Shown: positions 19,772 through 46,305 of the stretch, in pieces
Layout of the letters: each line of letters starts with the position of its first letter
How positions within the stretch are numbered: the stretch's first letter is position 1
Assembly: GCA_944390685.1 (NCBI GenBank)
Contig: CALXQL010000008.1
Span: 15,676 to 79,675, forward strand
Origin: an uncultured Alphaproteobacteria bacterium
GTDB taxonomy: Bacteria > Pseudomonadota > Alphaproteobacteria > Rs-D84 > CACZYB01
Direction of reading: 5' to 3'
DNA length: 64,000 bases
Program-made: the position numbers and the translations under genes
The notes under the pieces: generated by a model
Database searches by the model: none
The model's input: the letters and a program-made list of their open reading frames with translations, nothing else
Told to the model about the DNA's origin: nothing

Positions 19772-20680
19772 ATGGATAATTCTTCTAAAAATATGTTATC
19801 TAAATCCGTTAATTTTAATATTACCGGTGGGCTTCCCGCTTCTGTAAATGATGGCGGTATTGCTAATTATATCAATATGGTAAAGAATATACCTCATCTT
19901 ACACCAGAAGAAGAATTTGATTTAGCTGTAAAGGTTCAAGAAAATCATGATTTAAAGGCTGCGGAAAAACTGATTGAATCTAATCTATTTTTAGTGGTTG
20001 CTACTGCTTTTGAATATAAAGGTTATGGTCTTCCAATTTCTGACATTATTTCAGAGGGGAATATTGGTCTTATGAAAGCGGTTAAAAAGTATGATCCTAA
20101 AAAAGGATTCCGTCTTTCTACTTATGCTCTTTGGTGGATTAGGGCTACTATCAATGAGTTTATTCTTTCTTCTTGGAGTTTAGTAAAAATTGGAACCCAA
20201 AGCGCACAAAAAAAATTGTTTTTCAGTCTTAAAAAATTAAAGGCTAAACTTGGTATATATCATGATAATGAATTAACAAGTGATAAGGTTAAACAAATTG
20301 CTAAACATTTAGAAGTAGATGAAGATGATGTGGTGGAAATGAATAATCGTATGGTTAAGGATACATCTCTTAATAATCCTATCGCATCTTCTGATAATAA
20401 TGATGAAAGAATTTCTCAACTTGCTTCGCAAACTCCAAATAGTGAAGAAATTGTCGCAAATAATGAAGATAAAACTTTACGCATGAAATTATTATTTGAT
20501 GCCATGCAATCCCTTAATCCTAGGGAACAAATTGTCATTAAAAAAAGAAGGCTTGTTGATGAACCTGCCACTTTGGAAGATTTATCAATGGAACTTAATA
20601 TAAGTAAAGAAAGAGTTAGGCAAATTGAAAATAAAGCTATGGAAAAATTAACTAAATTCCTTACCAATCATAAAATTTAA
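19772..20680 (+). CDS. rpoH: RNA polymerase sigma-32 factor RpoH
   Basis: Sigma70 regions 2-4 with the RpoH box (WWIRATINEFIL plus QKKLFFSLKK). Start chosen at the ATG 8 nt after AAAGG; the alternative is 19766. The upstream part of the track ORF is promoter. Confidence 0.9.
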   Translation: MDNSSKNMLSKSVNFNITGGLPASVNDGGIANYINMVKNIPHLTPEEEFDLAVKVQENHDLKAAEKLIESNLFLVVATAFEYKGYGLPISDIISEGNIGLMKAVKKYDPKKGFRLSTYALWWIRATINEFILSSWSLVKIGTQSAQKKLFFSLKKLKAKLGIYHDNELTSDKVKQIAKHLEVDEDDVVEMNNRMVKDTSLNNPIASSDNNDERISQLASQTPNSEEIVANNEDKTLRMKLLFDAMQSLNPREQIVIKKRRLVDEPATLEDLSMELNISKERVRQIENKAMEKLTKFLTNHKI

Positions 20681-21588
20681 TTTTTCTTTATTTTTGATAA
20701 AGGGTGGTTTTCAATAACCGCTTTTTTTAATTTATCTTTCATTATATGTGTATATATTTGTGTGGTTGATATATCCGTATGACCAAGCATGGTTTGAACA
20801 GAACGTAGGTCTGCACCGCCTTCTAATAAATGAGATGCAAAACTATGTCTAAATACATGTGGAGATACTTGATTTATTATACCGCTTTTTAATGCTAAAT
20901 CTTTTAATTCCTTATAAAAAGCGAATCGGGTTAAATGTCCTTTATTACTTTTTGATGGAAATAAATATTTTGAATCTGTTTGTGTTTTATTTATAAAATT
21001 TTTCCTTATTTTTTCATAGCGTTCTTTTTTTTCAATAACTCTATGATTTATTGGTATCAATCTTTCCTTTGCCCCCTTACCCATTACTTGTATATATTCA
21101 TTTTTTATAAATGCTTTATATGGAAGAGATACCAATTCCGATACACGCAAACCTGTTGCATATAGCAATTCAACCAAAAAATCCAATCTTATACCTTTAT
21201 CCTTATTATTTTTATGGGCATAAGTAATTAGTTTTTCTATTTCATCTTGGCTTAAATATTTTGGAAGAGATTTTTGTTTTTTTGGTGTATGAATATTTGA
21301 TGCAGGGTTAGTGGTTATCAAATTTTCACTTAAACAAAATAGGTAAAAACCATTTATAGCGGTTAATTTTCTTGATTGTGTTTTGGCTGTGATATTATTT
21401 TCCCTTAAATATGATAAATAATATTTTATATCATCTTTTTTTACCAAAAGAAGATTTGTTTTTCCCAATTCCTTTTTTAGAAAAGTTTCAAAATGAACTA
21501 AATCACTACCATAGGCAAGTATTGTGTTTTTTGAACACCCCTTTTCCGCCCCAAGCATATCCAAAAATTCTTTTATTTCCTTTTGCAT
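20677..21588 (-). CDS. xerD: Tyrosine recombinase XerD (XerC not excluded)
   Basis: SAM-like N-terminal domain and catalytic residues within ATGLRVSEL, HVFRHSFASHLL and LGHTDISTTQIYTH. Confidence 0.85.
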   Translation of the reverse strand: MQKEIKEFLDMLGAEKGCSKNTILAYGSDLVHFETFLKKELGKTNLLLVKKDDIKYYLSYLRENNITAKTQSRKLTAINGFYLFCLSENLITTNPASNIHTPKKQKSLPKYLSQDEIEKLITYAHKNNKDKGIRLDFLVELLYATGLRVSELVSLPYKAFIKNEYIQVMGKGAKERLIPINHRVIEKKERYEKIRKNFINKTQTDSKYLFPSKSNKGHLTRFAFYKELKDLALKSGIINQVSPHVFRHSFASHLLEGGADLRSVQTMLGHTDISTTQIYTHIMKDKLKKAVIENHPLSKIKKN

Positions 21589-21652
21589 GTCTATAAGTAT
21601 AGCACTTTTTTTTTTAAAAGAAAGTTTTTCAACCTGTGGTTTGTAAAAATTA

Positions 21653-21681
21653 TTGCCTTTTTATTTTTTTACGAATATATT
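21653..21681 (+). promoter_or_regulatory. Candidate promoter TTGCCT-N17-TATATT driving the structured leader
   Basis: This -35/-10 pair places the TSS near 21688, the first base of a perfect 10-bp hairpin. Confidence 0.4.
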
Positions 21682-21686
21682 TTTTA

Positions 21687-21917
21687 TATCCTTAAACCTA
21701 TTTTAAGGATAAAGACATAAGTTAGTGAAGAGGGCTTAATCACCCAGATGACTAACACTTTTTAGTGTTTTGACTAACACTCACCCGACGTTTCATATTC
21801 GCCGGGAAGTCGCTATCATACAATAGGATAAGTTTCCTTATGGCTTATCTAAAAGTAGCGAGGTCAAAGTTATCTGACTGATTAACTTCCCGACTTCTTC
21901 TAATGGAAGTCTTTTTT
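21687..21917 (+). ncRNA. Candidate structured RNA or cis-regulatory leader of unknown class, ending in an intrinsic terminator upstream of a PAP2 gene
   Basis: GC-enriched island in an AT-rich gap. It has a 10-bp perfect hairpin (21687-21711), a long-range helix 21722-21753 with 21868-21903, alternative helices, and the terminator GACTTC-N8-GAAGTC plus T6 (21892-21917). See findings. Confidence 0.45.
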
Positions 21918-21946
21918 ATTAACTTAACAAACGAAAGGGAAGTATT

Positions 21947-22486
21947 ATGTCAAAAATCTTAATCAATTTGATAACTTGTTCTTCTATTTTATTTATGTAT
22001 AATAGTCCGTCTCAGGCTAAATCTATTCGTGAAATTGGTGATGCACTTAAACTGGTAGTGCCTGCTTATGCTTTGGGACTTACTATGGCTGAAGATGGTT
22101 ATGAGGGAGCAAGTCAATTTGCTCTATCTCTTATTTCTTCTCAACTTACAATTGAAGGACTTAAAAAAATAACAAAAAGAAAGCGTCCGGATTATGTGGA
22201 AGGTGATAAAAGAGATTCTTTCCCAAGTGGGCATAGTGGAAGTGCTTTTTCCGGTGCTACATTCATTCATAAAAGGTATGGTTTAAAACAAGCAATCATC
22301 CCTTATATTGGTGCTACATTTGTCGCATATTCTCGTGTGGAAAGTAATAGACATCATATAGAAGATGTTGTAGGAGGGGCTTTGGTATCCGCTTTTTATA
22401 CGTGGGTATTTGTTGATAAATTCCCTAACACTTCATTATCCGCTGATAGTGATGGGGTTGTATTAAAGTATAAAAAGGCTTTTTAA
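21947..22486 (+). CDS. PAP2-superfamily phosphatase (secreted or membrane-associated)
   Basis: Signal peptide and the three PAP2 motifs: KRKRPDY, PSGHS and SRVESNRHHIEDV. Confidence 0.85.
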   Translation: MSKILINLITCSSILFMYNSPSQAKSIREIGDALKLVVPAYALGLTMAEDGYEGASQFALSLISSQLTIEGLKKITKRKRPDYVEGDKRDSFPSGHSGSAFSGATFIHKRYGLKQAIIPYIGATFVAYSRVESNRHHIEDVVGGALVSAFYTWVFVDKFPNTSLSADSDGVVLKYKKAF

Positions 22487-45042: not shown

Positions 45043-45117
45043 TGGCTGGGGTGGCTGGATTCGAACCAACGAATGGCGGAACCAAAACCCGCTGCCTTAC
45101 CACTTGGCGACACCCCA
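45043..45117 (-). tRNA. tRNA-Gln (anticodon UUG)
   Basis: The reverse complement folds as a cloverleaf: acceptor TGGGGTG/CACCCCA (U1-A72, G73), anticodon stem GCGGG/TCCGC with loop TTTTGGT, T arm GTTGG-TTCGAAT-CCAGC, and an encoded CCA. Confidence 0.9.
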
Positions 45118-46231: not shown

Positions 46232-46305
46232 TGGCTGGGGTAAATGGATTCGAACCACTGTTAACAGAGCCAGAATCTGTTGTCCTACCACTAGACGATA
46301 CCCCA
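46232..46305 (-). tRNA. tRNA-Gln (anticodon CUG)
   Basis: Reverse-complement cloverleaf: acceptor TGGGGTA/TACCCCA (U1-A72, G73), anticodon stem ACAGA/TCTGT with loop TTCTGGC, T arm AGTGG-TTCGAAT-CCATT, and an encoded CCA. Confidence 0.9.

Follow-up and report, generated by a model that had tools for sequence, protein, structure and literature searches.

The 64,000-nucleotide stretch of DNA from an uncultured alphaproteobacterium analyzed here (hereafter called the window) carries, in the 358-bp gap between xerD (20677-21588, minus strand) and a gene for a PAP2 lipid-phosphate phosphatase (21947-22486, plus strand), a real, conserved and structured plus-strand RNA. This RNA represents a new family of a familiar kind, namely a structured leader that bears a terminator, and it probably acts in cis, as a riboswitch-like 5' leader of about 230 nucleotides (nt) in the PAP2 mRNA, whose expression would be set by read-through of the terminator while a junction domain of about 150 nt would serve as the sensor. 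It is a credible control element of this type because it has a promoter and a terminator of its own, is linked to PAP2 in six lineages, and belongs to no catalogued RNA family. In the original prediction, based on the sequence of the window, the gap was read as a riboswitch or attenuator; of that reading, the structured, PAP2-linked leader with its promoter and terminator has stood, whereas a proposed upstream open reading frame (uORF) and a GAAGTCG antiterminator have not, and an alternative helix, CGGGAAGT/ACTTCCCG, showed a single compensatory event only.

Homologues of the RNA were sought on contigs that encode diverged PAP2 homologues, the relatives of PAP2 numbering 371. The GyrB protein of the window organism is 74-77% identical to its nearest named entries, which are metagenome-assembled genomes labelled Rickettsiales or Alphaproteobacteria, and a XerD scan of species-representative genomes revealed no close relative, returning only two Clostridia loci of 27-28% identity. 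Closer GyrB relatives (P0125-P0135), of 78-88% identity, are encoded on contigs. Among contigs with an identical PAP2 protein, the gap was identical in four (L004-L007) and differed at 5 positions in one (L003). Beyond these, an RNA of the main clade was found directly upstream of PAP2 in L008 (PAP2 protein P0002, 68% identity), in the near-identical contigs L010-L019 (P0006, 54%) and in L025 (P0003, 62%), with nhmmer E values from 3e-69 to 3e-44. A covariance model, R1, built from the four main-clade lineages (window, L008, L010 and L025), then recognized a diverged clade, again 5' of PAP2, in L026 (P0007; 38.5 bits, E = 4e-8) and L034 (P0015; 23.8 bits, E = 3e-4). Examination of the regions upstream of PAP2 orthologues, as had been suggested in the original prediction, has thus yielded a homologous RNA in five other lineages, the PAP2 proteins of which are 54-68% identical to that of the window. 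Modest as this protein identity is, the RNA hardly varies in its 3' half, from CGGGAAGUCGCUAU to CCCGACUUCU, among the four lineages of the main clade.

The linkage to PAP2 is equally consistent. In 6/6 lineages, RNA and PAP2 are immediate neighbors on one strand, the RNA preceding the gene with 25-30 nt between the U-run and the start codon, and R1 detected no second copy in the window or the other fetched loci, together about 440 kb. Flanking genes, where visible, are not the same from lineage to lineage: upstream neighbors are xerD in the window, a SIMPL gene in L008 and tRNA-Met in L010 (the short contigs L025, L026 and L034 show none), and downstream neighbors are a DnaJ-domain gene and gyrB in the window, xseB and ndk in L010, 5S/23S ribosomal RNA (rRNA) in L026, an elongation factor P (EF-P) fragment in L034, and only a cut, unidentified minus-strand open reading frame (ORF) in both L008 and L025. 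The RNA and PAP2 move together as a unit through genome rearrangements. Two of these neighborhoods have features of their own. In L010-L019, the gene content 5' of the minus-strand tRNA-Met (L010 2545-2621), over positions ~1-2620, varies among the near-identical contigs, with a zeta-toxin gene, GmrSD, small hypothetical gene sets and DUF6994 present in some and absent from others, while the RNA-PAP2 unit downstream is constant; the variable region looks like an integration hotspot near a tRNA. In L026, the 5S rRNA and the 3' end of the 23S rRNA (1050-1451) are on the opposite strand, ~150 nt downstream of PAP2.

Not every PAP2 homologue is preceded by the RNA. The PAP2 of L009 (P0004) is 85% identical to that of L025 and yet has no RNA but a plain promoter upstream, for which reason the RNA looks like an optional regulatory add-on; this L009 gene lies between an HTH_3 gene and several small hypothetical ORFs (589-1519), and may have come there by transfer or relocation, as a copy driven by a simple promoter. 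In L020-L022 (P0005 in L020, P0008 in L021-L022; PAP2 identity 54-56%), the structured RNA is replaced by a same-strand tRNA-Leu(GAG) directly upstream (L020 1623-1707, L021 192-276, L022 440-524), 30-50 nt 5' of the PAP2 start. Nothing recognizable as a copy was found upstream of PAP2 in L023-L024 (P0013), L027 (P0016) or L028-L031 (P0020). A metagenome scan with a conserved 19-mer, GACTGATTAACTTCCYGAC, returned only two matches, to a GC-rich contig and to a simple repeat, both of them fortuitous; the close copies all come from ENA and Logan, and L026 and L034 are JGI contigs that the 19-mer does not match. Scans of viral contigs with two conserved blocks produced 0 and 24 matches, none of the 24 being recognized by the covariance model. 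The family is so far found only on metagenomic contigs of Rickettsiales-like alphaproteobacteria.

Structure in the RNA was evident from stability, covariation and single-sequence folding. The minimum free energy (MFE) of 21688-21920 (plus strand) was -71.7 kcal/mol, against -44.5 +/- 4.8 kcal/mol for dinucleotide shuffles (z = -5.7), with 0/200 shuffles as good, and the homologues folded with z values from -4.9 to -7.2 (-6.3 for L026 and -7.2 for L034). RNAalifold on the four close lineages returned a stalk of three helices, P0 (GGG/CCC), P1 (UUAAUCA/UGAUUAA) and P2, a junction carrying P3, P4 and a P5-P6 arm, and the terminator. Since MAFFT and covariance-model alignments misplaced P1-P3 of the diverged copies, covariation was counted on a six-lineage alignment (A5) made by hand with N padding, in which each segment was checked against the actual sequences. 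Here, 57 pairs in 8 helices were 95.2% paired, and 25 of them had changed on both sides (P1 5, P2 4, P3 4, P4 2, P5 4, P6 3, terminator 3). No observed measure was reached in any of 500 column shuffles, and when the partners were slid by 1-3 columns, pairing dropped to 37-48% with 1-6 double-changed pairs. As this alignment was fitted to the structure and holds only six lineages, the single-sequence folds are the key independent check: folded alone, L026 and L034 each adopted the same plan (5' hairpin, P0, an 8-9-bp P1, P2, P3, a 9-bp P4, P5 and terminator), although their helix sequences are largely different, P1 being GUUAAGUC/GACUUAAC in L026 and AGUAACUC/GAGUUACU in L034. The strand is also clear, R1 scoring the minus strand at 15-19 bits versus ~200 for the plus strand; many G-U pairs become A-C mismatches on the opposite strand. 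Stability, homologues, covariation and agreeing folds together bear out the structured RNA that had been predicted.

The notion that short complementarities in an AT-rich spacer have produced a functionless semblance of structure can practically be dismissed, for even though chance often yields short AT-rich helices, and the scan found promoter-like sites only slightly enriched (15 versus 10.2 expected), it is contradicted by the folding z score, by the 25 pairs with compensatory changes, and by conservation, as seen in the near-identical 3' half and in the recognizable copies of two diverged lineages.

From its 5' end, the RNA begins with a hairpin of TATCCTTAAA, loop CCTAT and TTTAAGGATA (21687-21711 in the MFE fold), which is the perfect 10-bp hairpin of the original prediction, with arms at 21687 and 21702; it was found in 5/5 lineages that have the region on the contig (window, L008, L010, L026 and L034; L025 is cut off there), with unrelated sequences, and may act as a 5' stabilizer. 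A conserved segment, AAGACAUAAGUUAGUGAAGA (21712-21731), follows, and then the 5' strands of the stalk (21732-21753), comprising P0 GGG (21732-21734), P1 CUUAAUCA (21735-21742), a CCC joiner, and P2 AGAUGACU (21746-21753). The 3' strands of the stalk (21862-21891) are formed by a GGUCAA joiner, P2 AGUUAUCU (21868-21875), a GAC joiner, P1 UGAUUAAC (21879-21886), and a strand designated Y, ACUUCCCG (21885-21892), which includes the CCC of P0. Double-sided changes affect 5/8 pairs of P1 and 4/10 of P2, while P0 shows only G-C to G-U changes. On this stalk sits the four-way junction. Its P3 hairpin (21754-21769; AACACU, loop UUUU, AGUGUU) is paired in 100% of cells, with double-sided changes in 4/6 pairs. 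The junction strand J3/4, UUGACUAACACUCA (21770-21783), contains a second ACUAACAC copy, and its UAACA is invariant in the four main-clade sequences. The P4 hairpin (21784-21806; CCCGAC, an 11-nt loop, GCCGGG) has 94% of cells paired and 2 pairs changed on both sides, and is 8-9 bp long in L010, L025, L026 and L034. In the P5-P6 arm (21810-21861), P5 (UCGCUAU/GUAGCGA) and P6 (GAUAAG/CUUAUC), with 4/7 and 3/7 pairs changed on both sides, respectively, and both 100% paired, flank a conserved internal loop of CAUACAAUAG and UAAAA; the P6 loop is variable, and in L026 and L034 P6 is missing and P5 closes a 14-nt loop. The strings given for this arm in the original prediction were found at their places (CGCTA at 21811 and TAGCG at 21856, GATAAG at 21827), apart from CTTATC, which starts at 21844 and not 21843.

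The junction domain is followed by the intrinsic terminator (21892-21917), composed of GACUUCU, the loop UCUAAU, GGAAGUC and U6. The terminator scan placed a 7-pair hairpin at 21892-21911, followed by TTTTTT, in agreement with the predicted strings (GACTTC at 21892, GAAGTC at 21906 and T6 at 21912). All six lineages have conserved the terminator; its cells are paired throughout (100%), 3 pairs show double-sided changes, and the U-runs of L026 and L034 are broken up. From the end of the T-run at 21917 there are 29 nt to the ATG at 21947, which accommodate a Shine-Dalgarno (SD) region, GGGAAG (21937-21942), 4 nt before the ATG. With the terminator at this distance, PAP2 would be obtained only from transcripts that read through it, and in keeping with an earlier claim, no conserved promoter between terminator and ATG was found by the promoter scan or in the homologue sequences.

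Transcription would come from a sigma-70-type promoter, TTGCCT-17-TATATT (21653-21681, plus strand), which had been predicted and was also listed by the promoter scan, with TTGCCT at 21653 and TATATT at 21676; a transcription start near 21688 is suggested by its position. Promoter-like pairs were read at an equal distance 5' of the hairpin in L008 (TTGCCT-16-TATATT), L010 (TTGTAT-17-TAACCT) and L026 (TTGAAT-17-TATAGT). Two internal promoter-like sites, at 21770-21799 and 21792-21819, fall within J3/4 and the variable loop of P4; lacking conservation, they were rejected. As for the within-species variant L003 (2644-3000, compared with window 21589-21946), its 5 differing positions are 4 substitutions and 1 deletion. 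Three of the changes are all outside the junction domain: the -35 box reads TTGTCT instead of TTGCCT, one base immediately before the hairpin is substituted, and the loop of the 5' hairpin is 1 nt shorter; the remaining two differences are further upstream.

The window has a GC content of 28%, and the xerD-PAP2 gap peaks at 0.44 per 100 nt, while gaps with no RNA gene or small ORF reach at most 30% GC over any 100 nt, most of them at most 0.23. The four gaps at 0.42-0.56 are those of the four tRNA genes, and two gaps peaking at 0.36 and 0.39 carry small protein genes, infA and a MazG-like ORF among them. Apart from tRNA and small-gene gaps, then, the xerD-PAP2 gap is the sole GC-rich gap of the window, and the GC-enriched island that had been claimed for it holds. 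Two of the tRNA genes of the window, both on the minus strand, are tRNA-Gln genes (UUG and CUG; 45043-45117 and 46232-46305), no more than 1.3 kb apart.

In the window clade, all parts of the terminator (5' arm, loop, 3' arm and first U residues) find their complement in the conserved 5' segment, (A)AGACAUAGUUAGUAAAG (21712-21731), which could therefore serve as an antiterminator. The duplex has a predicted energy of -12.1 kcal/mol in the window (p = 0.012 versus shuffles) and -12.8 to -14.1 kcal/mol in L008, L010 and L025 (p <= 0.007), compared with -7.0 to -8.0 kcal/mol for the main-clade terminator hairpin alone. The full-length MFE structure of the main clade uses this pairing and is better by 3.5-6.5 kcal/mol than the fold in which the terminator is forced; moreover, the pairing with the terminator 5' arm and loop forms already when the 3' arm is unavailable. 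The four terminator loops (UCUAAU, ACUAAC, AUUAACU and ACUAAUAAU) differ in sequence and length, and their pairing with GUUAGU of the 5' segment is kept in all four. A five-part long-range helix had been predicted here, and its strings were found in place (TTAG 21722, GAAG 21727, TTAATC 21736 and CAGATGACT 21745, with partners AGTTATCTG 21868 and GATTAA 21880); its outer segments, TTAG/CTAA and GAAG/CTTC, do compete with the terminator and are part of the conserved complementarity of the window clade. This outer pairing is the best candidate for an antiterminator.

Other alternative pairings proposed for the leader fared less well. Strand X, GCCGGGAAGU (21801-21810), consists of the 3' strand of P4 plus AAGU and resembles an SD sequence; in consensus form (GYCRGGAAGU), it can pair with either the 5' strand of P4 or Y (ACUUCCYGAC), and Y in turn has bases in common with P0 and with the terminator, of which it covers the first three. 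The X/Y helix, which had been predicted as CGGGAAGT (21803) with ACTTCCCG (21885), is possible in 6/6 lineages, with 94% of cells paired, but has a single G-C to A-U double change, a value matched in 32/500 shuffles and thus not clearly separated from them. For CGGGAAGT, covariation favors a different partner, namely the local hairpin P4 (CCCGAC...GCCGGG, 21784-21806), which was absent from the original prediction. The second proposed antiterminator, GAAGTCG (21806-21812) with the 5' arm of the terminator, was rejected, as it fails in L026 and L034, where the terminators differ in sequence. Sequestration of the SD by Y was likewise rejected: by inspection, Y is complementary to the PAP2 SD in 6/6 lineages, yet base-pair probabilities predicted no consistent SD occlusion over the six. 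The duplicated 10-mer, GACTAACACT, was confirmed at 21750 and 21772. In the main clade, ACUAACAC occurs twice (window 21750-21781), at the P2/P3 boundary and in J3/4, and a similar CUAAY is present in the terminator loop; all three can pair with GUUAGU of the 5' segment, and the J3/4 copy could also pair with the 3' strand of P3. In L010 (2780-2981), both ACUAACAC copies have changed together with the 3' strand of P3 (AAUGC / GCAUU / AAUGU), which hints at an alternative P3. None of the models examined here accounts for this three-way pattern.

Searches against known families returned no relative, in agreement with the original prediction, which had recognized no known riboswitch class, transfer-messenger RNA (tmRNA), signal recognition particle (SRP) RNA or RNase P RNA. 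At the gathering score, Rfam 15 listed only four tRNAs in the window, and ARAGORN likewise four tRNAs and no tmRNA. The interval 21560-21980 searched at E <= 10 produced only noise of 13-17 bits from unrelated families, with no riboswitch, 6S, SRP, RNase P or tmRNA among them and no match near the gathering score to any other Rfam 15 family, alphaproteobacterial small RNAs included, and L008, L025, L026 and L034 at E <= 1 gave nothing save the 5S/23S rRNA genes of L026. Hence, the Rfam scan that had been proposed as a check produced no significant match, 6S RNA included.

The closest parallels are transcription-terminating riboswitches with large multi-helix aptamers, such as the M-box Mg2+ sensor and SAM-I. 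Like these, the PAP2 leader has a promoter-proximal multi-way junction on a closing stalk, followed by a terminator just 5' of the SD of one gene, and a strand with two pairing options in the terminator region, the whole forming a GC-rich island in an AT-rich genome. Unlike them, it has no Rfam 15 covariance match even at E = 10, and the role of antiterminator would fall not to a shared P1 strand but to a 5' segment that lies beyond the stalk and is not seen in the diverged clade. Nor was a PAP2 lipid phosphatase found to be linked to any riboswitch in the literature searched, which returned no riboswitch associated with PAP2 or LpxE.

The presumed regulated gene encodes a protein of 179 amino acids that matches the Pfam family PAP2 (PF01569, E = 8.7e-18); Pfam places it in the general family only, with weak similarity to the LpxE, SepP and UppP models. 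Its AlphaFold model (pLDDT 87) was closest to Bacillus subtilis PgpB (5jki), Aquifex LpxE (6ebu; TM 0.63-0.68) and Escherichia coli PgpB. As all three are transmembrane lipid-phosphate phosphatases, the modelled fold identifies the protein as an envelope lipid phosphatase of the PgpB/LpxE type. It is to be noted that residues 162-179 (window 22430-22483) and the corresponding region of the homologues are predicted to form a C-terminal beta-hairpin with a conserved Y-K-x-x-F or F-R-x-x-F motif, which recalls an outer-membrane protein signature and is unusual for an inner-membrane enzyme of this type.

Under the cis-acting reading, the leader would work as follows. Transcription would start near 21688, and the 5' hairpin would fold first, followed by the sensor domain, a P0-P1-P2 stalk bearing the four-way junction with P3, P4 and P5/P6. 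The intrinsic terminator would be transcribed next, and only read-through transcripts would yield PAP2. In the window clade, 21712-21731 would pair with the emerging 5' arm and loop of the terminator, thereby extending the stalk and blocking the terminator hairpin. Whether the 5' segment is free would depend on a signal, most likely a small ligand or ion, that is read by the junction domain, and the outcome would set the level of the PgpB/LpxE-type phosphatase. That termination and read-through actually take place, and that a signal exists, are thus predictions of the model. Binding of a small ligand, which would make the leader a true riboswitch, is a more doubtful proposition than control in cis as such. 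Equally tentative is the fuller suggestion that the leader is an undescribed riboswitch class, confined to uncultured Rickettsiales-like alphaproteobacteria, that senses an envelope cue (for instance a divalent cation or a precursor of lipids or the cell wall) and controls the PgpB/LpxE-type phosphatase.

Several observations weigh against this reading. No ligand pocket is recognizable, and few nucleotides besides GGAAG and CUUCC are invariant between the clades. L026 and L034 lack the complementarity of the 5' segment (p = 0.2 and 0.97) and have stronger terminators, at -11.4 and -13.6 kcal/mol, so that the case for a single antitermination mechanism is confined to the main clade. There, moreover, the fold of lowest energy is already the antiterminated one, so that thermodynamics by itself does not account for termination. 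The six lineages include four that are close in RNA, and the hand-fitted alignment makes the counts lean toward the structure. Lastly, conserved adjacency of an RNA and an ORF is also known for trans-acting RNAs, as in ssrS-ygfA.

The last point leads to the alternative that the sequence is an independent small RNA gene, either trans-acting or a housekeeping RNA akin to the 6S rod, the transcript of which terminates and then pairs its ends, PAP2 being expressed by read-through from a strong promoter. The promoter, 5' hairpin and conserved terminator would all suit such a gene, as would the full-length MFE of the main clade, an end-to-end paired rod in which the 3' arm of the terminator and the beginning of its U-run take part. 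In the diverged copies, strong terminators with no visible antiterminator point the same way. The comparison with 6S RNA (ssrS), which is co-transcribed with a downstream ORF (ygfA in E. coli), is instructive in this respect: both RNAs are about 200 nt long, with two ends that pair into a long stalk, a promoter of their own and conserved adjacency to a downstream protein gene. A precedent of another sort is offered by L020-L022, where the PAP2 orthologue also follows a same-strand RNA gene and has no obvious promoter of its own; with tRNA-Leu(GAG) directly 5' of it, this PAP2 can depend, and apparently does, on a promoter that serves a stable-RNA gene. The RNA there, however, is an ordinary tRNA with no homology to the leader and no evident terminator before PAP2. 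Moreover, the PAP2 leader matches no Rfam family, 6S included, even at E = 10, and folds into a four-way junction with a 3' joiner of only 6-7 nt, instead of the rod with a large central bubble and terminal stem that characterizes 6S RNA. It is also separated from the ORF by an intrinsic terminator, was never found apart from PAP2 in the ~440 kb, and is present or absent among close relatives, always with PAP2, whereas a housekeeping RNA should not disappear between relatives with 85% identical PAP2, such as L009 and L025. On balance, we regard an independent small RNA gene as the main rival, though an unlikely one.

A leader that acts in cis and senses no small molecule, being either an attenuator dependent on a protein or RNA factor or a constitutive 5' untranslated region that serves stability, processing or translation, also appears improbable, even though it would explain certain features. 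The motifs most conserved across the clades are the complementary X (CRGGAAG, SD-like) and Y (CUUCCY, anti-SD-like), rather than junction nucleotides typical of ligand pockets; 5'-terminal hairpins are typical of stabilizers, and the default fold of the main clade is already that of read-through. Nonetheless, a four-way-junction domain of ~150 nt, with an internal loop invariant in the main clade, exceeds the usual stability elements in complexity, and SD occlusion was not consistently predicted. Autoregulation is unlikely as well, since PAP2 is not an RNA-binding protein.

Ribosome-mediated attenuation by a leader peptide is almost certainly wrong: the predicted 13-codon uORF, MAYLKVARSKLSD, does exist in the window (21840-21881) and ends near the Y strand, but its ATG lies in the variable P6 loop, none of the other five lineages (L008, L010, L025, L026 and L034) has an ATG or ORF there, and no other short leader ORF is common to the six.

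With regard to the biology of these bacteria, few regulators and, to our knowledge, almost no RNA sensors have been described in Rickettsiales-related bacteria with reduced, AT-rich genomes. The envelope and its charge are shaped by PAP2 enzymes of the PgpB/LpxE type, whose activities include recycling of undecaprenyl pyrophosphate, synthesis of phosphatidylglycerol and removal of the lipid A 1-phosphate. Even if the RNA should turn out to be a small RNA, it would still constitute a novel and well-supported RNA family, from lineages that only metagenomes have revealed. If the leader does sense a signal, it would be an RNA switch tied to envelope lipid chemistry and a new orphan class, for which the gene context narrows the candidate ligands; and should it indeed represent an undescribed riboswitch class, enzymes of the PgpB/LpxE type would thereby gain their first associated RNA sensor.

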